Shown here piece by piece: positions 20,694 through 64,000 of a DNA stretch of 64,000 bases. The stretch is taken from the NCBI GenBank assembly GCA_977018835.1, contig OZ361259.1, positions 3,286,001 to 3,350,000 of the forward strand. The letters run 5' to 3'. The notes under the pieces are model-generated. The model was not told the DNA's origin, ran no database searches, and saw nothing but the letters and a program-made list of their open reading frames with translations. The translations under genes were made by a program, and so were the position numbers. Source of the stretch: Minutocellus sp. GHC0000111. Lineage: Eukaryota. How positions within the stretch are numbered: the first letter of the stretch is position 1; every line of letters starts with the position of its first letter.

Positions 20694-20892
20694 TATCCTG
20701 CAACATGTTATTAGGTACAGGTGCATGTAGCTAAAGCAAAGATAAGAACAATGTAGATAGAATCGATAGATATGCTGGGCAGAGTTAGTAATTATTTATT
20801 ACAGTATATATATTGTTACAGTATTTACATTGGAAGTCGGAATCGGAAAGAACAGGAACAGAAAATATACATGCAGTGCTTTTGGACTGGAT

Positions 20893-21480
20893 CTAGCCAG
20901 CTACTCTATTCATCGTTTTGAAAAACGCAAATGGATCATTTGACCAATCTCTTTGATTCATGGTAGCCTCGAAGGCATCACGCTTTGCCCTGCGTTGAGC
21001 ACGATCAGCTGCCTCGGCGGTGGTTTCGGAGTATGCCCTGGCAATATCGTCGGGAGAATTTTCGGCATCCTGGGCTTCAAAGACCGCGCAAAGCGCTGCG
21101 TTTTTATTGGCAAGGAGTTCAGTGTATACCTCGCGGGAGATGAGATGTTCGAGACCTCTAGTGTCTTGTGTGGTTGGGTCGAGGGCAGTCCTGTGGCGGA
21201 TGGCGCGCAGAGTCACGGCGATGTCCTCCTTGCATTCTTGCCGATCCCCTTCATTGAAGTACACGGATGAGATTTGCTCTTGCTCCATGTTGTGAAGGGA
21301 GGCGATTGTCGTCACTTCAACCTGGCTGGAAAATGTGATGGTTAGATGCTTTGCTTTTTTCTGGGGTCTCCGCTTTGGAGCATTTTGTGTATGCGAAGGG
21401 ATCGCGAGAGTTGCTGCGGAGTACAGGTAGGCGGACTCACTTGCAACCGGCGAGGGCAAAGAAGGTGGTGTAGCAAGCAT
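20893..21480 (-). CDS. Hypothetical protein of a lineage-expanded family (V/IxF...DI..T...TRGLEHL motif); paralog of 25285-25779
   Basis: Shares TRGLEHL and RAxxxAxxDA with the ORF at 25285-25779. Confidence 0.7.
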   Translation of the reverse strand: MLATPPSLPSPVASESAYLYSAATLAIPSHTQNAPKRRPQKKAKHLTITFSSQVEVTTIASLHNMEQEQISSVYFNEGDRQECKEDIAVTLRAIRHRTALDPTTQDTRGLEHLISREVYTELLANKNAALCAVFEAQDAENSPDDIARAYSETTAEAADRAQRRAKRDAFEATMNQRDWSNDPFAFFKTMNRVAG

Positions 21481-21951
21481 GGCGAATGAGCAGAGTGGTG
21501 GTGTTAGCTTGTCTATTGCAGTAGAAGGATTTGCGGGCAGGCGTCGGCTGCTGTTTGGCTTACTGCCTCCTGCTTGGAATGATATCGGAATGCAAATCCT
21601 TTGCATTCCGACAGAAAAGGCGGGTTTCCAGGGTGCCTAGGTACGCACTCTCTGCAATAATCAAAGCGTGCACTTATTGCAACTCAAGTTGAACCTCTCA
21701 AGAAAAAAGAAAGTCGAACTTTCGGAAACGAACTGGCGCAAAAAGTCTTTTTGTGCCTGACTTCTCCTTGAACTATCGCAACGCTCGTGGCAAGGAAGTG
21801 CGCACTAGCTAGTAGCGAGCACAGGCAGCCAACACATTGCCGAGAACGTGCCGCACCGTGCAAATCTGCCTCGTGCACATCATTTTTTCTCACCGAAACC
21901 CTCCTTCCAACCCTTCCTCCTTCCTGCGCAATTGATTTGCATTGCAAAACA

Positions 21952-22212
21952 ATGAACATTCTCTCATCATCAAACAACACGGACCTTCGAAGAGTCGATT
22001 GTCATCAAACAAATCCAAAAGCTCGTCGCACTGTTAGCTTTGACAGAAACACCATCATCCTTGAAGTGTCATGTCTTCGAAGCCACACCGAGTCGAAATG
22101 ACCATGTTGTGGCTCACCCCTCAAGACAACCTCCGCATCAAAAACGATGTGTGAAACGACGGACCGTCAAGAACGTGCAAAGAGGATGTGATGAGTCGAT
22201 CATGACCGACAC
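21952..22212 (+). pseudogene. Truncated, frameshifted paralog of the 25285-25779 gene, interrupted by a Copia relic
   Basis: Across two frameshifts it reads RTVSFDRNTIILEVSCLRSHT / EMTMLWLTPQDNLRIKNDV / KRRTVKNVQRGCDES. The paralog reads KVAFVETVVIHEVLSLQSYTDVEMEKCWLTPRDHCRMQKDIKRTTKYMRRGCDES. Confidence 0.75.
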
Positions 22213-22229
22213 ACGGCACCAGCGCGGCA

Positions 22230-22970
22230 GATGGCTCTCTCCGCACGACTGCGACTTGGGCATTGTCGGAACGGAGCATGCGCGTGACGCCATTGTGCCG
22301 AGTGAAATCCGACAAGGTCTTGACGAAAGAAGATTCAGACTGCATGCCACAGACGGCGTCAAACCTTTCGCCAGTGGCTCGGAGGAGTTGACTGATCTTG
22401 CGCTCGACGCGCTGGTCCAAGCAGGTGGTCCATGCAAGCGCTCGACCTCCTTGAGCTCCGGACAAAGCATCATGAGCAAGCTCAATGATGGAACGATCAG
22501 GAACGATGGCCTTGTGTTGAGTCCAGCGTCTGGGCCTCCAATTGTCAAAGAAGTCCCAATCAGTGACGTCATGCAACGCCATCCGCCGAGCAAGAACGCA
22601 ATCCTTCACATCGGAAGGTCCGAACCGCCGCAAGGCACACAGCAGGCGACCGAACATCAGCGACCCAGCCACGGCAGTGTGGTCCCCAACTGTCTCCTCC
22701 GTCGTTTCGGAGCCGCGGATGTCGGCGGCGGTGGCCAGCGCGTCGAGAGCGGCGGTGTCCGTCATGGTTGTCTATTATGGCTGTGTTGGTTGTTTTTCAA
22801 CGCGGTGAAAGCAAGGCAAGATTTTTTATGAAAAAAAATAAAAAAAAAACAAAAGAGCGGCGGCTCGTGGTCCCGCTCAGGCCGAGGGGAGCTTCCCCCC
22901 GAAAACCAAAACCCCGCGGCTCAAATGAACCGGTAACATGAGGTCATCGCCGAAATCAATTGAATGACAT
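22230..22970 (-). mobile_element. Internally deleted Ty1/Copia relic: 5' leader, putative gag start (ATG 22765) fused to an integrase-core fragment
   Basis: AVCGMQSESSFVKTLSDFTRHNGVTRMLRSDNAQV resembles the diatom Copia integrase core (VYGM.SE..F..TL.DFIR..G....L.SDNA). Poly-T leader upstream. Boundaries are approximate and no LTR pair was found. Confidence 0.65.
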
Positions 22971-23275
22971 GTATACCGATCTACATAATATCATGCAACA
23001 TTCTTGTATTTTCTCGTTACATTGTACATGAACATACTACTTTGGAAAAGAAAGTCTATATAATAGATCTTTGTTACCAAATGCATATAAATATAAAGCA
23101 TATTACAATTAGTAATTCGGCCGTACAACGCACTTGCTTGCGAATCAAACTCAAATTCCGTACATTATGAAGAACATTCGACTCGTGACAGGGCTGACAT
23201 GGCAAAGAAGGCATTAAATTCGAACATGATCCGAGTATAATCACATTTAAAAAAATTGGTAAAATGCAGTCATTG

Positions 23276-23605
23276 TCAGGATTTACTGCCCTTGACAGAT
23301 TCATCTGAGCCACAATTTCCTTCATCGTCTCCAAATGATATTTCGTTGTCATCCATGCATTTTTTCAGTGGACGAAAAGGATCCATACAGTCGGTCGCCT
23401 TTTCTGAAGCCTGTACACATGCATGCCATTTTATGAATGCGTCCCGACAGGGTCCATCTAAAAAGAATCTGCAAAATGGGCAGTCCTCATCAATTTTTGG
23501 TGTCGATTCTGGCTTCGAAGAAGCCGCAGGCTCACTTTTTGCATCGATATCATCCCCGTCGCATCCTGCAGGTACATTTGACGAAGACCTCTGCATCAAT
23601 ATCAA
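23276..23605 (-). CDS. Small Cys-rich GCK/CHCH-like protein (5' end unresolved)
   Basis: CPFCRFFLDGPCRDAFIKWHAC...DCMDPFRPLKKCM, a twin-Cys pattern. Confidence 0.7.
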   Translation of the reverse strand: MILMQRSSSNVPAGCDGDDIDAKSEPAASSKPESTPKIDEDCPFCRFFLDGPCRDAFIKWHACVQASEKATDCMDPFRPLKKCMDDNEISFGDDEGNCGSDESVKGSKS

Positions 23606-24163
23606 TTATACTGAAGAAGATACCAACAAAGTTTGGTAACCCGGGTGCCTTTGCTCTTTTCTTGACCATATTCGGGACGTGAGAGGGAACTCTGTGCAAT
23701 CTGCTTGGCGTCGAAAGTAGCCAGGCAAAGCTGATCTACCACCGATGCTAAAAGCTAAATTGGAACGGCGTCGGACAAAAACCCTTGTCACTTTTTGCAA
23801 AGTTCTCATTTGACGCATTCTATCGGTATGCCCAATTCAGGGACGTTCTTCACGGCACTCTAATACGCAGTACCGGTAGTAGTCGTCAACCATCGCATGC
23901 GACTTACAGAGATACAGATGGATGGAAGATAAGAGATGGTCTGTCCGTCACCTTCCCATCACCCATCGCAGCAGCAGCAGCAGCAGCTCTCAGCAGAAGA
24001 TCTCCAGAAGCACAGACGCGCGCCTCAGAACTCATCGCAGATTGCACCCGCCAGAGACGAAGCGAACAGGTACGGAGTGAATCAACTCAGTCCTCGAGGG
24101 GTTGCAAAGAAGAGAAGCGGTTGATCACGAAAGGAAACCTATCCTAATCTGAGCCTCCCAATC

Positions 24164-24949
24164 ATGGCCTCTCTCAACATATCCGCGGCGGCTGTTAATG
24201 CCAAGGAATTCCCACCCGACAAGAACGAAAAATGGGCTGGCATACCACTGGATCACGATCAGTGGGTCCACACGCACAATGCGCTTCGCGTCGAGATGCG
24301 GTCTATGATTGAGGCCCTGGACTCGATGGCTGGGCGACTGAAGACCGAGCGAAATGTGCCAGAGTGGGCAGCAGCTACTATCGGAGCGTGGTGGGAGGGA
24401 CACGTGGCCCATGCCGTCGATCACTGTGAGGCAGAGGAAAAGATGTACCGGCCCTTGCTGAGCACTCGCTTTGTTTGGCCAAAGGAGATTGAAACCATTC
24501 ACAATCAGCTCGACTTTGTTCGCGATAAGGTCGGCAGAGCTGTGTCCAATTTGAGCTCAGACAAGGCATCTCTATCGGCCCTCCGAAATGCAATGGCGGC
24601 TTATGAGAAGACCATGCTTGCGCATTTCGCCGTCGAAGAGAGGGCAGCCCTTCCTCTGATGCGTGAGTACTTCCCGCCCAACCCAGAGATATCAACGCTT
24701 CAGCGAAAAATGCTGGAAAGTGCCCCCGATAATGCCATGGGTGCTCTCATATATGCCATGGGACCGGAGAGGTTTCGATCTGAATTCATGAAAGAACGGG
24801 CGATACCTTTCTTCGTTTGGCACGTGGCTTTCAAAGGTCGATTGGCACGTTACGAGACAGAAATGGTGTCCAAAGTGAAGGCTATTAAAAACGTCGTGAA
24901 GCCCGAGGAGCCGCCAGAAAAGAAGGGCGGGTGGTTCCGATCGGTGTAA
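24164..24949 (+). CDS. Hemerythrin-like (HHE cation-binding) protein
   Basis: WVHTHNALR, HAVDHCEAEEKMYRP, IH, HFAVEE His/Glu ligand pattern. Confidence 0.75.
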   Translation: MASLNISAAAVNAKEFPPDKNEKWAGIPLDHDQWVHTHNALRVEMRSMIEALDSMAGRLKTERNVPEWAAATIGAWWEGHVAHAVDHCEAEEKMYRPLLSTRFVWPKEIETIHNQLDFVRDKVGRAVSNLSSDKASLSALRNAMAAYEKTMLAHFAVEERAALPLMREYFPPNPEISTLQRKMLESAPDNAMGALIYAMGPERFRSEFMKERAIPFFVWHVAFKGRLARYETEMVSKVKAIKNVVKPEEPPEKKGGWFRSV

Positions 24950-25284
24950 TATAACTGCTTTGGTTGTTGGACTTGAAAGAGGTTTTACAAATGAAAGAGA
25001 TATTTTGGAAATGAAAAGTAATGGTTCCATTGGTACATTCTATTCCATGGGATAAGCTAAACTTTGTACCTGTACCAAGAAGGGCATGGCGATCTACGGT
25101 AGCTCTAAGGTACCAAAGGGTACACTACGCCACATTACTCTGGACAATACTACACGTAACTGGCTGATTGCTCAGCTCTTAGAAATGTAAGATGCAAACA
25201 TCGAACAGGATTGAGAGTAACAAACATTATGTACATCAAGTGGTTAATATTCTACATGTATTTCAGGTGAGGGATAAGTTGCAT

Positions 25285-25779
25285 TCACGAATAAATGACA
25301 TTCTTCTTGACAAATTCGGCATCAAGATGTGCCTTTTGCACGGCACGATCCCGAGCGCGCTTCGACAGCCTTGAAGAAGTGGCGGCAAAGTTCCTTGATG
25401 AATGTAGTTCATTCTTCGACTGTTCGGCGAGGACAGCTTGGACCAAAGTATCTCTCTCGTGTGTGAGTTCTCGAAAGATGTTGATATCTCTCAAATGTTC
25501 CAGGCCCCGTGTGCAGAGCCCATCATGCGTCGACTCGTCACATCCTCTTCGCATGTACTTGGTTGTTCGTTTGATATCCTTTTGCATACGGCAATGGTCT
25601 CGAGGGGTGAGCCAGCACTTTTCCATTTCGACATCGGTATAGCTTTGAAGACTTAGCACTTCGTGGATGACGACGGTTTCTACAAAGGCTACTTTGTTGC
25701 GATGGGAACGAAAATTGGCCGAGCGGGCATCGTTGTGGTGGGCAGGAAGCCGAAGGCGATGGAACGAGTGCTCTTTCAT
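25285..25779 (-). CDS. Hypothetical protein, same family as 20893-21480
   Basis: KVAF...CW....DIKRT...CTRGLEHL...AVLAEQ...ARDRAVQKAHLDA. Confidence 0.65.
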   Translation of the reverse strand: MKEHSFHRLRLPAHHNDARSANFRSHRNKVAFVETVVIHEVLSLQSYTDVEMEKCWLTPRDHCRMQKDIKRTTKYMRRGCDESTHDGLCTRGLEHLRDINIFRELTHERDTLVQAVLAEQSKNELHSSRNFAATSSRLSKRARDRAVQKAHLDAEFVKKNVIYS

Positions 25780-26506
25780 CCTTCGGGTAGGTGGGTTCGA
25801 TCAACTCACTACTTCGAGTACAGCTCTGTGGCAACGCTTTTGAGGAAACTGTCCGAGCATTATGCCTTTTTTGGTTTTCGCGGTAACGCCGATGCATGTA
25901 GGAATTCCTACTTGAACTGGATGACGCAGCAGCATGAACTCTTATGCGTGATCACGTGTAAACACAATGACGCAGGATGCAGCCTTTTGGCGTGTTCCAT
26001 TTGTGTGAGTCAGTTTCATAATCATTCCGGATGCCCGGGTTACACCACATACTTGCAGCATCTCTATTATGCGACATCTTGAAGTTGTGTACAGAGTTAC
26101 TAAGGGCGCCGTTTTTTTTGTGTGTCTTTCAGCCTCGTTCTGTGATAGGATACTCCCGCCAATAAACATGCCGGAAAGTTTGACACTCCCGCCACTTGAC
26201 CCGGCTGGCCGGCGATGTTGGCAAGTGCGGACTTTCTTTTTCCAGCGGTGAGCCTACACTGAAATTGAGTCAGTCCAAAATCATTGATACGACCAGCTTA
26301 TTGCAGAGCACAAAAATCGTCCCACCAACGGATTTTCGCGATCCTTGAAGTAGAAATCGGGATCAATCGAGTGCCCCTTCCTCTTGCGTTGCGCGTGACG
26401 ATGGCCGGCCGACGGTTCGCCCTCTCGCCGCCGCCGACCGCGCGCGCCCCTGCTTCATCGCTGTCTACTCGTTGCGCCTTGCTTGTTGAGAATACACATA
26501 GAAATA

Positions 26507-40649: not shown

Positions 40650-42070
40650 AGAAGCGAAGCGTTATCTTAGATATATCCCATGTATGTTATTCAGAGCTTG
40701 AGCGGTGGTTTGGATAGTCACTGATCTTGCAAGAATGCCTTTCCCAGCAGCAAAATATGTGACACGCGAAATTTTGATGTTCCGGACTGCAGGACAGGAT
40801 GTGCACATCGTAGGAGCATCAGCGAAGCTAAATCCAACACCACAAGCATAGGATCGCCTTACATGTAAATACGATGCATAAGAGGTTTTCAAAGCTTGAG
40901 CGGCGGTTTCTTTCTCTGCGCGCTTCTCGAGATCACCTATTATACTTCGAGGGGGCTGGCGGTTCAAAAAAACTCCAAAATCCGGGACTCTAAGGGACTA
41001 GAGGCATCAAAATCGCAAGAAGTGAGTGCAGACTTTAACATAGAACCACATCGTAACCTTAGACATGATCTAAAGGAGGTATCAAAGGCTTGGGCGAAGG
41101 TTTCCTCAACTACTTGGCCTCCAAGGATGACTATTATTGTTCCCGAAGGTCAACGAAGGCAAATCTTGAGATTTTTTGCGGGCTGGTAATATGTAAAACT
41201 CGAGGTTACGAGTGCAAACTCCAACATAGGAGCATATTGTTACCTTGTGTATGACCCCCGCAATATATTCAAAGCTTGGTCGAAGGTTTCGACTGCTACA
41301 GGGCCCTCATGGTTGCCTATGATGGTTCCCGGGGGGCTGATGATGCCGAAAACTGGGGTTTTGGCGAAGTGATGGCATATGAACCTCGATCTTATGGGTG
41401 CAAACTCCAACATAGAACCACAGCGCAAGTTTACGTAACACCCACAGAAGGTATTCAAAGCCTGGACAGAGGATTCGGCTGCTACTTGGCCTCCAAAGGT
41501 TACTGTTATTGTGATCGGAGGTCAATTAGAGAAAATTCTGGGAATCTGGGTGGGAGGACGGCACATAAATCTCGATCTTATGAGTGCAAGCTTAATAATA
41601 GAAGCATGGCGTTACCTTTGGTATGTCCCAAGGAAGGTACCCGAGGCTTGGGCGAAGTTTTCCACTACTGATCCGCTCTCAAGGACAACTAGGTCGTCAG
41701 CGCCAGATTTGGGAAGTTTTTGCGAGATAGTGATGCATAAAACTAGAAAAAATACATGTAAGTATAAAGTCAAGCATCGATGCACAGGGGTGCCTTAGGT
41801 ATGACCCAAATAGGAGGTATCTAAGGTTTGGGCGAACATTTTCACTGCTGATTGGCTCTCAAGAGAGACTACAACCACATGTTATCACCGCGTGGTAATG
41901 ACGCCCCTTGATTTTGAGATTCGGGGCAAATAAATGAAATTCGCTGTTGAAGTGTAATTAATTTCTAACACAGACTCACAGCGTTACCTGATGATCCCCC
42001 GGAAGCAATTAGTCAAGGCTTGGGGGTAGAGTTCCAGCACTTATCGCCCCCCAAGGGTGGCTATCACTCC
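40650..42070. repeat. Degenerate tandem array of about 8 units, period 180-198 bp
   Basis: The gcttg-like core of the conserved aggtattcaaagcttgggcgaaggtttc block recurs at 40696, 40894, 41088, 41274, 41460, 41646, 41826 and 42018. gagtgcaaactccaacatag recurs at about 41025, 41210, 41396 and 41582. Confidence 0.85.
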
Positions 42071-42169
42071 CGGCGGTCTTCGTGGCAAACATTTTGTATT
42101 TCTGGGAGAAGTGGGCACTAGAGAGACTACACGGCCTTGTCGTATGTGAATGTTGTAACAAACCGATTA

Positions 42170-45942: not shown

Positions 45943-46170
45943 TAGATCTACACGACGAAGATTTAGAGATTCTAGAAGTGCCGTTACGGCACCGGTACAA
46001 CACGTACTAGTAGATCTAGGAATTCCTAGATCTAGATTTACTCAGCGCCTTAGATCTAGATCTACATACATGTATGTAGACTCTATCTTTTGAAAGAATT
46101 GCAGATGATATATGTCTCATTTACATGTAGAGTATCTATGGTAGATCTACGTAGCTCCAGCTAGCACAGT
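45943..46170. repeat. Cluster of TA-rich palindromes built on TAGATCTA/TACATGTA
   Basis: Perfect palindromes tagatctaggaattcctagatcta (46011-46034), tctacatacatgtatgtaga (46061-46080) and gtagatctac (46141-46150). Confidence 0.85.
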
Positions 46171-58512: not shown

Positions 58513-59214
58513 CAAGAGCACATAACAAAAAATAGGTGGTGCACGCATGGCAGAAAGCAAGGGAAAAATTCCACCATGTTTGGCACTCTTTTTTTGGGTG
58601 ATTGTGGATGACGTTAATTTCTGGCCCAAGCGCGCATCTTTCATCTTCAACGCGCACCGCGCAAATAATACTAGGCCTACTACGCCATAAGCCGAAGGGC
58701 TGCTTCGTCGTGTCGCCCACATCCCCCTTCCGGCGGAACGAGCCGCCATGGCGTGCAGGTGCCCTCTTGCGTGGTGCCTGCAACAAGTACGCCGATCCGG
58801 CGGCGTCGTTGCCTAAGCAAATGGGCGATTGCTTGCCCACCGTCAGCGCGAGCTGCCGCTGCCGCCCCCTCCCGTCGTACTTATTGCCGCCAACTGGCAT
58901 GTCCGGTGCTTTTGTATTGATCAACCCATCGGTTCCGGCGTGCTGCCCATCGAGATGTGAGAAACATTCTGTTCGTGAATTTATTCATGTGAGGGCATCT
59001 ATGGACGGTTCTTGGCTGGGCATCATGTATTCATTCTCCCGAATCATACTGAGTTCAGCTGGTAATGGTAGCACGGTCAACAATGGCGGCAGCCGATGTG
59101 GCCGACAAGGGACCTTGCGTCCGTATCTTGTCAGCCCCTTTTGCCGCTGGAGTCACCCGCTTTCCATTTCTTGCTTTGCTAAGTTTGTGTACAGATACGA
59201 ATATGTACATTATT

Positions 59215-62200
59215 TTATGTGCATTTTTCAACATCTCCCTCAAAATCTAACTTCTTCTTTGCTCCACTTGTCGCCTTCAATTTTGCTCGCAAGGCCATGT
59301 CGGCTTTATCAATCTGCTGCTCATTGTATCGTCGCGTCGCTTCTCCAGCGCGTGCATGGGAGGCTTTCTTGACAATCTTGGTGAATATTATCTTCTTTTC
59401 GCCTTCCGGTAGGTCAATATCGTTTTCTGCTTTGTTGAATAGTCCCCACAAGTCTTCGTCGCTGATGATGGTCTTGTATTCTCCTTGATTGCCTCTTTGC
59501 CGACTTCTTCGATGGTCTTTTCATTCACTAATTCCCTTGTTCTTTTCATTACCATCCTTCCAAAGGGCACATATTGGGGGGCCAGGAGGAATAGGCCACC
59601 GCGATTTCGTATCTGGTCGATTGGAGCGTAATATTTCTGTAAGTATCCTGCGTCTTTTATTGCTTCGCGATGCAACAGTCTCATTGATTTCACATGCAGC
59701 ACTGCCTTCCGATCACTGTTCTCACACGTATTTTCATCCTCGTCTTCGTTGTCTTCTTCGTAGAAGAAGCTTTCAGAGTCTTGCCACTTCTCACGATATT
59801 GATCGAGCACTTCTTTCATGGCCCAACCGACGAAGTTGGTTACTTCCGAATTCTCTTCGTCCTGGTCGATGGATCCCTTTGCGTTACCGTTGGTGGTGAT
59901 AGCGGCGGTACTGGAATCACTGGGCGATGTGAAAGTATCGATGATGGCTTCATCAAGCCAATTACTGAAAAGCCGAGCGAGATGTTGCTCCACGATGGCG
60001 GCGGCAAGATGAGACTGGGACAGAGACGCCGGCAGCAGCTTCCGCAGATCTTGAAATTTCTTGCTAGTAATGAAGTCATGCTGGTGCCACCAGAATGACT
60101 GTTTATGGCCGGACTTCTGCATGATGCTCTTGTCTAGTGATGTAAATGCTGTGAGTATCATTTGCTGGCACGCCAAATTGAAGAGCACTTCGTCTTCCTC
60201 ATCTAACGATGCGATTGCTTTGAAACATTTCTCTTCTTCCGTTCCAACGCTCACTCTTGCCATTCCCTCAAATGTTTCGTCATCCAGCAGGTAGTCAGAG
60301 AAGTTGGAATCAATGTTGTATGTCGCCATCGTTTTGTGCAGACTGCGCATGCGCTCGGTGGAGCCAACCGCCGGTTGATCTCCCTCGCCATCCTCATCGT
60401 CGCAAGGAGGAAGTATCGAGATGGATGCCTCTGCCGGCTTCTTTTTCTCGTCTCGCCACGACTTTACCACCAGAGCTCGGCGATCGTCTGTGCGCCCCAT
60501 CACCGACTCCAGACGATTCCATGACACTGCTACCTCCGTGGTGTCGCCTTCGTAGTTTGGGTTGGATTCGTTCATAATCTGGATGCTGTCTTGAGAGTTG
60601 ATGGCTGTTATTGCGGACGGATAGTTGTGGACAGAGTCGCCGCCCAAGTATCGAATGTGTGAGAAGGTAGCTTCAAGCGATGACTGGTTGGCATGGAGGA
60701 ATTTGACGTACGAGGGAGGGTTCGGTAGCAGGAAGACGAGTCGGCAGCATTGAAAGAAGCCGCAAACACCAATCCGAAGGTTTTTGTACGTGGTGGTAGA
60801 AATATAGGACTTTTCCCACGCAGGGTTGCCTTGTTGCTTGAGCTGCAAAGAGGCGAGTCGCCAAGCCTCGAAGTACTCCAAAGCAGACCTAGTCTCTTTC
60901 TCCTTCTCGTCGATGTTGTCTGGGGTGACACTGACCTCGCCATTCAAAAAGTTTTCAATAAAAATAGTCCCGACATGAAAGTTGTACTCTACGTGAGCCA
61001 GGTCTTGCCGTAGCTGTTGAAAGTTGGCGTCGCCTAGGACATTGGAGATTTTGCTAACTTCGCTCGCGTTGTCGGACGACGGAAAGACCGTCGTTCATCC
61101 CGAACGAAGCTCACCATGGTGCCCCCCGCTCTTGACCGCTGCACATTTGCAAGGTAAGACATGGGCATTCCCGAGGCTGGCCGACACCACTGCGCTGCTC
61201 ATGCGAAAGTTTCAGCTTCATTGGACTGTTGTTGCATGAGAAAACATAATTCAAAACAATCAACCTGTGTTTGAGCACGCGAAAAAGGGCCACGGATGAG
61301 AAGTGACACCAAGAGAGCCACAGTCGCCCAATCCACCCAGAATTGCAGAGATGCACGCCTGAGATGTGCATGAAAATGTTTGTTTGGTTGATTGTTGTGT
61401 GTTTGATTCGTGTCCGCCCCCGCATCGGCCGCCAATGAGAGCAAAATTTCGTCCGGCGTCGTCGTTTTTCTCGCGAAACTTTGCCCCCACCCACCAAACA
61501 CATGTTGTGCTTGGAATTTTTGAGCTGCGCCTTCGATGCCACATTTCTACAGGGTGTCTAGATGTGTGGCATTTGCTCAGAATTCTCAATTCTCCCATTC
61601 ATTCCAGAGATTCTTGGGGGCAAAGGTCTGCCGGACGGCGAATTTCGCGTTCTCCCATGCTTCGCCGCGTTGAAAACGGTCGACGGAAAGACGAATGTCC
61701 AGTTTTCGGGTCGAGCGGCTCACCTAAAGCTGGACCAACTCACCACCCTGGGAGAAAAACGCGCCGTGCGGGGCCTCCCTGCAAGCTGGCGAGCTGAGTT
61801 TTGAATCTCACCCAAAATGAAGCCCACCAGGTCGCCGACTGCAGCCGTCTAGTCCAGAGCCAGCTCAGCTGCATCGCCGGCAGCGTCCTTGACAGCCTCC
61901 TTGGCGAGCTCCTCCAAGAGCACTGACCTCGCCGAAGCATGGTCGCTGCCAACAACGTGGTCAGCAGCCGTCTTGAAGAGGTCAAGCATGACGCCATCCT
62001 TCTCGAGGTCAAAAGCGACTTTGCAAGCATCACTCTCCAGCTTTGTCTTGGCGTAGCGCAGGCGGTCCCTGGTGGAGCGGGCAGCTTTCCGTTGGTTCTG
62101 CTGGCGCTCCTTCAGCCTCGTCGGGGTCAGGTGCTTGATCGGAGCTCGGCTGCTGGCGCCGACCTGCTTGGCGCGATTCAGTTGCTTCCTGTTCTCCCGT

Positions 62201-63367
62201 CGGAGGAAGTTTTTCCTTTCAGTCGAGCACGGACCACACAAAATGCCATCCCGCTCGAATTCACCTAAGGAGACCAGCCCACACGAAGCGTCGCCGAACG
62301 ACGGACGGACAAAAATTGACCCAACTCCTTTCTCCTAGCTTAACGCTAGCAAAATGCCGATGGCTGCCCCGCAAAATACGCATTGCTGCCTGACCCTCCT
62401 TGGACGCAACAAATCCCTCTCCTTGCATGCTGTGCATTCGCACCAGTGAAGCAGTCAAGTCGGCGGCGGATGGCAGCACCAAGCCAACCTCGTCGTACAG
62501 CCGAGGATGTTTATCAGGACTGATAGCAGAAAATGCGGTTGCACAGCCATCACACACGTCCACCGGAGCCTCGGAAGTTGCACCAATAAATATCGAACAG
62601 TCCGGGCTCCGCCATGCTCCATCCTTTTGCGTGAAAGAGAAGTATTTGGAACACACTCCACGACCAATGTCTCCAGCTTGCAGCACGCTCAACAACTGAG
62701 GATGGCCACCAATACCGGACCGACACGCATCACAGATTTGCACTACGCCAGATCCATCGCCACCGCCAGCACCGGTGGAACCACCACTAATGCCTGTGGT
62801 GTCACACGCCGGTGTAATCGGAGCGGCCGCCCCATTGCCAACCTTCGCTTTCTTGGGGGTCTTGTGCGTTCCCAAAGGGACCGACGGATGTTGGTCCGCC
62901 TCCAAGAGCCGCTTGACGCTGGCTGCCGACCGAGAGCTTTTGCCACCGAGCACCATCATCAAGGATCGGGACTGATCGATAGTATGGTCTGGAGGCCAGA
63001 AATATTTACCATTGAACTCGTTGATGGCTTCTGCAAAACCGTGTCTCTTTGCAATCTCCGCAGGAACGGGCGTTGTCGGAAAATGGCTCTTGCCGTCTGT
63101 TTCTCCAGCAAAGTATTGAAGCGCGTCAGCAGAGAAATGATGCTTCGCAATCTCGTACCTCTCAACATCAAATTTGAATCCAGATAAAGTGAGATTCTTC
63201 TTCAGAACTGCCTGGTATTTTTTACTCTTGTCACTATCTTTCAATCTGAACTCGAACCCGCCGCTTCTGATGTTGTTGTGAGACTCGTCGATAATGCGAC
63301 GTATCTTGTCGCAATCGTCATGCCTGCACAGGCATTTCCTGGCACCAGCAGGGGTGCCGCTGCTCAT
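59215..63367 (-). pseudogene. P-element/THAP9-like transposase, disrupted (frameshifts ~62328 and ~59480, TAG 61849, central deletion, nested insertion)
   Basis: N-terminal THAP-like KCLCRHDDC...IAKHHF; coiled coil; QNSARQLAGRPRTARFSPRV; C-terminal catalytic-Glu motif HANQSSLEATFSHIRYLGG (compare xNQDxLExxFxxxRxxGG). The central Asp motifs were not found. Confidence 0.78.
61086..61681. mobile_element. Nested ~600-bp non-coding insertion with short TIRs and an 8-10-bp TSD
   Basis: Direct repeat cgacggaaagac at 61077-61088 and 61681-61692. Ends gaccgtcgttca... / ...ttgaaaacggtc are imperfect inverted repeats. Confidence 0.6.
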
Positions 63368-64000
63368 GACCGCGGCAACCAAAGGGCACACGACAGGTGA
63401 TGTGCATCCGCGGTCGATGCTCGCGAAAAGAAGAACCGATGCCGGCCAATAAGTACAATGGAGGGCAAGTTCCGACGCGTGGCGCGTGCGCGCAAAGGAG
63501 GGTTGGAAAATTCGATGTGCGCTCGCGCAAGGCACTTGGGCCAAAATTAACGGATTCCACATTCACCCCAAAAAAAGAGTGCCGAACATGGTGAGCGCAA
63601 AAGCGCGCGCGTGGACCACCCTGTTATTTGTTATTTGCTCTTGATGCCGGCTGCGCGGCAGCATGGCGAAAATGAGCACCCCCCGTTTCTTGAGCTCCCG
63701 AAAATAAGCAAGAAACCCTCATAAGCCGATAGGAACTCCAACGCCTGAGCCACTCATTCAAACCTGATGATAGCCACCACAATGAGGTGCCTTTCGAAGC
63801 GTCCCCTTGCCGCCGCTGCATTCGCTGCTGTAGCATCTGAACCTACGTTAGGGCCCCATGGCCCTTGGCCTCTCGCATCTTGCGTGCAAGCATTTTCTTC
63901 TCCTCCCAGAATAACCAGACTTGCGCGCACGCAACGATGTGTCACAACGTCCACCACTGACGCACGAGACACCGAAGCCCCTAAATTGCCCGACTCGCAT

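Follow-up and report, generated by a model that had tools for sequence, protein, structure and literature searches.

The closest described counterpart of the locus reported here is found in Bigelowiella natans, where integrated NCLDV and virophage DNA undergoes hypermutation of TpA to TpG/CpA (Mettrop et al., bioRxiv 10.64898/2026.01.13.699255). As far as the accessible part of that preprint goes, the signature was measured directly, all such changes in two integrated viruses fell on TpA, the mutation rate was raised about 1000-fold in some lines only, and a TadA/ADAT-type (ADAT2/3-type) deaminase has been proposed, not proven. The same part extends one region about 21 kb, has likely host domains among TpA-poor genes and makes no mention of diatoms, spread, flanks or copia (10.64898/2026.01.13.699255). 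A second precedent is RIP leakage in ascomycetes, in which a repeat-aimed mutator overruns adjacent single-copy genes (accessible part of PMC3105345). For diatoms, the accessible literature describes H3K9me2/3, H3K27me3 and CG methylation on Copia elements of Phaeodactylum and suggests spreading or proximity effects within 1 kb in transposon silencing (PMC4504042; 10.1101/2021.06.11.447926). Such repressive chromatin is a possible aiming device in the case described below; what this literature describes is silencing and not A>G mutation, and we found no diatom report of a TpA-loss signature in the open-access literature.

The window (the whole 64,000-nucleotide stretch of DNA analyzed) is by its sequence eukaryotic and diatom-like. 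It holds a light-harvesting protein gene with an intron (PF00504) and a plastid-targeting start that we take to be diatom-typical, and 0.83-0.97 of the words sampled from the region were present in five public runs, with lower shares in others; the run with the highest share may derive from the source of the window itself. Within it, TpA has been almost completely lost in and around a small repeated, integrase-like remnant, the loss extending some 390 bp into the promoter and body of a host gene, probably through the action of a host enzyme that turned the A of TpA into G in chromosomal DNA, on both strands, at places set by position and not by repeat sequence. The features concerned are the following:

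21815..22772, no strand: TpA desert, 958 bp with 1 TpA, from count against expectation
21815..21951, plus strand: host promoter/5' UTR of the pseudogene, single-locus depth; 0 TpA in 137 bp, 4.5 expected, P 0.011; CpA+TpG rho 1.51
21952..22205, plus strand: 5' half of a host gene, now a pseudogene, from a family without Pfam match; best matches P0008/P0012/P0007
22035..22036, plus strand: lone TpA of the desert; G at 22036 in runs X14, X16 and X19
22202..22250, no strand: short multi-copy repeat; summed contig depth about ten times that of the flanks in runs X1, X3 and X4, contig depth at the core not being copy number
22259..22402, minus strand: integrase-like fragment, some 48 codons long; features rve/rva_4 at 0.88-0.92 in the ESM Atlas, a weak assignment from one source
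22351..22494, no strand: second repeated piece; X1, X3 and X4 show additional contigs here and a loose end at 22351
22495..22772, minus strand: right arm, at single-locus depth; its 278 bp contain 0 TpA, 5.8 expected, P 0.003

The TpA desert is a real feature. Against its single TpA, 27.3 would be predicted given the local base composition and a background rho of 0.58 (P 4e-11), and every other 958-bp stretch of the window contains at least 5. No TpA occurs between 21813 and 22035 or between 22035 and 22773; the longest gap thus measures 738, compared with 332 in 100 Markov-simulated windows. The statistics were controlled over all 16 dinucleotides, and in the window a gap >317 was found for none of them except TpA. 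TpA rho stays at 0.0-0.06 throughout the desert, and both edges are sharp at 100-bp resolution. The left host part (21815-22201) holds 1 TpA against 14.5 expected (P 8e-6), or against 8.6 when a conservative rate from relatives plus flank is used (P 0.002). Depth is that of a single locus over about two thirds of the desert, and the right arm ends in an ORF start (22765) that a 45-aa protein encoded at another place has in common. As the letters of the other runs suggest, G>A likely created the one TpA at 22035 anew. CpA+TpG rho is 1.31-1.51 in the desert segments and 1.15 outside; over the desert CpA stands at 1.31 and TpG at 1.42, with the background of 1.15 applying to both together. GpT and TpC have risen as strongly relative to background as CpA and TpG, so that composition alone cannot name the products. 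CpG is normal (rho about 1.1, no depletion). ApT-type adenine methylation was rejected as a cause of the desert, ApT (rho 0.9-1.2) not being depleted.

The locus resembles that of Bigelowiella in substitution and context, in the involvement of both strands, in a TpA-poor, CpA+TpG-rich end state and in signs of episodic activity; it may also resemble it in having foreign or mobile DNA at its centre, the core here being multi-copy with changing flanks and, on weak evidence, integrase-like (compared with the accessible part of 10.64898/2026.01.13.699255). A:T>G:C change favours TpA here too, in small numbers, and strikes both strands (T>C at 22084, A>G at 22109; see below). The Bigelowiella case differs in concerning a rhizarian and viruses of 25-186 kb, whereas here a core of about 300 bp resides in a diatom-like stramenopile and a host promoter and gene have been reached. 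An overrun into adjacent single-copy DNA, 387 bp to the left and 278 bp to the right of the repeated core, is shared with what the accessible account of RIP leakage describes (PMC3105345); the measured 387 bp bears out a preliminary description of this DNA, according to which the desert continued for some 400 bp past the transposon sequence into gene and promoter. RIP itself runs in the opposite direction, since it changes C to T and makes TpA while TpA is removed here, and it mutates both copies of a pair, whereas the paralog in our window keeps its TpA.

The core is mobile or repeated DNA. The repeat at 22202-22250 also occurs in X14 and X15 with other flanks, and its join to the pseudogene is a 4-base microhomology. 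The stretch 22260-22300 recurs at 40/41 identity, likewise with other flanks, in X14, X16 and X19; some of the TpA loss in the core is therefore older than the locus. A search of 1.84 billion representatives yielded one other degenerate copy of the integrase-like fragment, P0022 (59% over 46 aa), which has Tyr where the window piece has His. No Pfam, NCBIfam or PDB match was obtained for the fragment, which may be of Copia type by a motif, and its single-sequence fold (pLDDT 60) was too weak for a structure search. Paired LTRs are not apparent, there being no long direct repeat in 21400-23400, and the fragment stands alone and not in a gag-PR-IN-RT-RH order. Rfam gave two chance-level matches, none of them on the 22202-22250 repeat, and a hammerhead reading was dropped. 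A 10-bp inverted repeat at 21929/22953 was likewise rejected as marking element ends, given that 36 such pairs occur within 2 kb and that its left arm consists of host sequence which the relatives conserve. No confirmed locus emerged from JGI metagenomes scanned with P0008 and the integrase-like alignment, nor from a scan of viral sequences. A 214-aa ORF is not considered a genuine gene: its frame stays open for want of TAA/TAG, contains 0 Tyr and is frameshifted in P0010; a word-indexed protein search returned no longer relatives and, at near lengths, only itself and P0010. At about 22300-22310, P0010 has a Tyr codon, and hence a TpA, where the window has none; this difference is absent from the main contigs of X1, X3 and X4 and may represent another allele or an assembly error.

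Other parts of the window deserve mention in their own right. A degenerate tandem array, its units 66-77% identical and recurring about every 186 bp, occupies 41023-42130 and is TpA-rich, as is a cluster of short palindromes at 45990-46160 that includes a perfect 24-bp palindrome at 46011-46034. In 58572-63593, inverted repeats of 62 bp (87%) bracket two long ORFs without Pfam match (59388-61094 and 62261-63562), the first of which we take to be transposase-like, and the whole is a probable DNA transposon. Its TpA erasure is patchy, with 7 TpA against 34 expected in 61156-62335 and a rho of 0.43-0.54 kept in the ORFs; this second TpA-poor patch speaks for the process proposed here.

Polymorphism within the species bears on whether the process acted in place. 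Over 20700-26200, 9 differences from the window occur in X1, 23 in X3 and 31 in X4, runs that represent three samples from two studies; because contigs may collapse heterozygous sites, these differences may lie between haplotypes and not between samples. The tallies rest on the 21 of these places that were listed. TpA/TpG-CpA pairs make up 7 of the 13 listed within-species transitions, where 22% would be expected (P 0.013), and the excess has a P of 0.075 when the trio at 23864-23880 is counted as one event; five of six listed T>C polymorphisms sit in TpA. For the outgroup run X14, 2 of 14 listed transitions are of the TpA type (Fisher P 0.046 against the within-species figure). Two groups stand out:

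21670..21860, no strand: left-edge group of three TpA/TpG-CpA polymorphisms (21670, 21813, 21860), without outgroup cover and so unpolarised
23669..23880, no strand assigned: four T>C polymorphisms, each in TpA and each on the same strand, 0.9-1.1 kb beyond the desert's right edge

Of the left-edge trio, TpA is in the other allele at two places and in the window at one; if TpA is ancestral, both alleles have been hit. At the sites in 23669-23880, X14 is without C at three and mixed at 23871. The DNA between the desert and this cluster is TpA-rich (24 in 200 bp), where a simple gradient predicts otherwise, and we saw no smooth gradient of TpA loss around the desert but sharp edges and a separate cluster about 1 kb away. 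The same two structural variants are present in 20700-26200 at about half depth in all three samples from the two studies, which suggests a clonal lineage or fixed heterozygosity. The first of them removes part of the desert:

21922..22201, no strand: segment missing from the second haplotype; joint at about half depth in X1, X3 and X4

The joint carries two units that we take to be telomere-like. P0010, taken from a different assembly, spans this junction too and shows additional small frameshifts. One allele has thus lost the pseudogene outright. Further right, the second haplotype skips 288 bp of TpA-rich DNA 3' of a GCK-domain gene (22970-23259, about half depth in X1, X3 and X4), and a divergent contig end lies at 23549. 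Deletions of 280 and 288 bp hence flank the core in this haplotype, and the core itself features short insertions of 2-4 bases, in addition to the microhomology join, which point to repeated break repair.

It is conceivable that the same chemistry was aimed by such breaks, in that single-stranded DNA exposed during repair was deaminated in a kataegis-like manner without any chromatin domain. The two deletions, one of them closed with telomere-like units, the small insertions and microhomology join, the four hits on one strand within 212 bp and the sharp edges of the desert would all agree with this. However, near-complete loss on two strands over 958 bp would demand many rounds, the window haplotype has been erased though it is without both deletions, and the Bigelowiella viral regions of 25-186 kb are hit whole (accessible part of 10.64898/2026.01.13.699255). 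We consider aiming by breaks unlikely and favour aiming by chromatin or small RNA over break-exposed single strands, because erasure is nearly complete on the haplotype without deletions and repressive marks have been described for diatom transposons.

The direction of change can be approached through other members of the pseudogene's family, two of which reside in the window:

25285..25779, minus strand: intact paralog of another subfamily, 53-54% aa identity to P0012; keeps 12 TpA
20893..21636, minus strand: third, distant member, 24-32% identity, head to head with the pseudogene

The pseudogene has suffered a 1-base loss at 22091, has gained about 5 extra bases near 22150-22158 and is cut off at the repeat. 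The intact paralog provides the desert's only blastn match in the window (22055-22199 against 25670-25530, 74% identity, E 2e-16), and the preliminary description had read the direction of mutation from it, listing four TpA sites that are CpA/TpG in the pseudogene. The letters it quoted for both gene copies are indeed there, and five of the six paralog TpA that align to the pseudogene read CpA/TpG. The same is true for 6 of 11 aligned CpG, a rate that does not differ significantly from that of TpA (Fisher P 0.33). The paralog at 25.5 kb is thus a weak gauge of direction: it belongs to another subfamily, CpG sites differ likewise, and closer intact relatives exist, the first piece of the pseudogene scoring 47-57 bits to P0008/P0012/P0007 versus 29-31 bits to the window paralog. 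Over the homologous 255 bp the paralog still has 8 TpA (rho 0.52), so the process was not aimed by pairing between these two copies. It has a Cys where its nearest relatives P0002/14/15 have Tyr, as does the pseudogene at that place, and its N-terminus is shorter; the shared Cys may reflect independent TpA>TpG changes or gene conversion.

The closer intact relatives, P0007, P0008, P0011, P0012 and P0013, match the pseudogene better and from the start codon on. They are full-length genes (P0012, 148 aa) and, by sequence comparison, candidate orthologs; P0013 resembles a recombinant of the P0008 and P0012 types. Contigs of the relative genes (X14, X15, X16, X19) were compared over 21780-22300. 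For each of the 21 listed difference rows there is a run in which the alignment continues for 33 letters or more before it ends, and from these rows we derived a testable span of 21982-22111 (130 bp) and a blind span of 22112-22148. The testable span contains two TpA sites of the relatives:

22084..22085, plus strand: TpA>CpA, Tyr codon to His; T in X16 record 12
22108..22109, plus strand: TpA>TpG, synonymous in a Leu codon, absent from the preliminary description; both X16 contigs, one from X19 and one from X15 have A at 22109

Both (2/2) now read CpA/TpG, with one change per strand, as compared to 3 of 63 for the same transitions at other A/T sites (Fisher P 0.025). The Tyr codon at 22084 is also present in loose ends of five further contigs (X15, X16, X19), and the residue is Tyr in 13 of 17 aligned proteins and Phe in the other 4. 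Of the four sites put forward earlier, 22084 holds, with TpA in the relatives, while 22086 must be given up, as the relatives already read CpA there, the very observation that the preliminary description had named as speaking against it; 22148-49 is ambiguous, with CpA in the closest relatives and TpA in a farther paralog, and 22136 falls within the blind span. The fifth paralog-based site, 22070, is not a TpA loss either, the relatives already having CpA. X14 and X19 have a short motif in common ahead of the start codon, and the letters that follow it contain TpA. Taken together, the relatives' two TpA lost on opposite strands, the polymorphisms in the single-copy promoter and the zero-TpA promoter against the relatives' TpA upstream of the start sustain the claimed direction from TpA to CpA/TpG and an action in place within host DNA, while most of the four-site proof falls away.

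The closest relatives are themselves TpA-poor, with 2 TpA in the 130 bp and a single Tyr in each protein, versus 5-8 Tyr in full-length sister proteins, and 18 of 20 listed differences from them are not TpA losses, many being C>T/G>A. Gene lineage and element might consequently have been poor in TpA before they met, with CpG decay and chance doing the rest. The 6 of 11 CpG changed in the paralog alignment and the core piece found at 40/41 in other runs speak for such inherited poverty. It is nevertheless quite improbable, given that the host part deviates even on the conservative rate (P 0.002), that promoter and right arm are empty as well and that TpA-type polymorphisms still segregate. The poverty of the relatives may instead record earlier exposure to the same process. 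As to the earlier claim that neither retroelement composition nor editing during reverse transcription is responsible, two-strand hits and a promoter in place speak against either being the whole story; part of the TpA poverty does predate the locus.

RIP requires paired copies and a sexual cycle. A RIP-like, homology-sensing mechanism would have hit the gene as one of several near-identical tandem copies and not via the neighbouring element, and several close subfamily copies do exist in the relatives (two X16 contigs; the recombinant-like P0013). The subfamily nearest the pseudogene (P0007, P0008, P0011-P0013) moreover has lost Tyr at two positions, where it has His or Gln and sister subfamilies mostly have Tyr. 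In X1, X3 and X4, however, no close second copy aligned to the pseudogene, the 74% paralog keeps its TpA, and single-locus promoter and right arm were erased too, which renders this mechanism very unlikely. A-to-I editing of RNA from the element, made permanent when that RNA was reverse-transcribed together with a host fragment, would suit the integrase-like core and the ADAR-preferred 5'-U context that TpA represents (accessible part of 10.64898/2026.01.13.699255), but is already largely refuted and exceedingly improbable, since RNA editing before reverse transcription cannot account for hits on both strands in a promoter that never left its site, where it runs on into the host DNA upstream and is polymorphic.

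Our best reading therefore remains position-directed TpA>TpG/CpA hypermutation at the DNA level as in Bigelowiella, overshooting its target like RIP leakage (accessible parts of 10.64898/2026.01.13.699255 and PMC3105345). The chemistry would be deamination of adenine by a TadA/ADAT-type enzyme, and aiming would follow from the silenced state of the element, leaking over a few hundred bases as RIP does. Activity may be episodic, seeing that a newly made TpA survives and that the remote hits cluster on one strand. The small duplications and the telomere-closed deletion could be traces of edited bases being excised and repaired. The earlier conclusion on direction and reach is probably right, the chromatin domain postulated along with it being a candidate aiming device, and the TpA-targeted DNA editing of one unrelated alga likely also works here and spills into host genes. 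A broader version, to which we give somewhat less than even chances, is that diatoms possess a defence mutator which deaminates the adenine of TpA, is aimed at the neighbourhood of even a 300-bp remnant, is still active in wild haplotypes and destroys nearby host genes through base change as well as through repair-born breaks that telomere repeats close; it would be an adenine mirror of RIP, present in two distant branches of SAR.

The locus alone provides modest support; its value lies in the intact relatives and the two haplotypes, which permit polarised tests. Should our reading be correct, the targeted change of A to G in DNA would be more than the quirk of one alga and would extend to diatoms, and, gene editing being routine in diatoms, enzyme and aiming rule would become testable. 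GC content, transposon dating and selection tests would be biased in affected genomes, and overshoot into promoters and genes would, like RIP leakage in fungi, lead to the loss of genes and the divergence of haplotypes near transposons.
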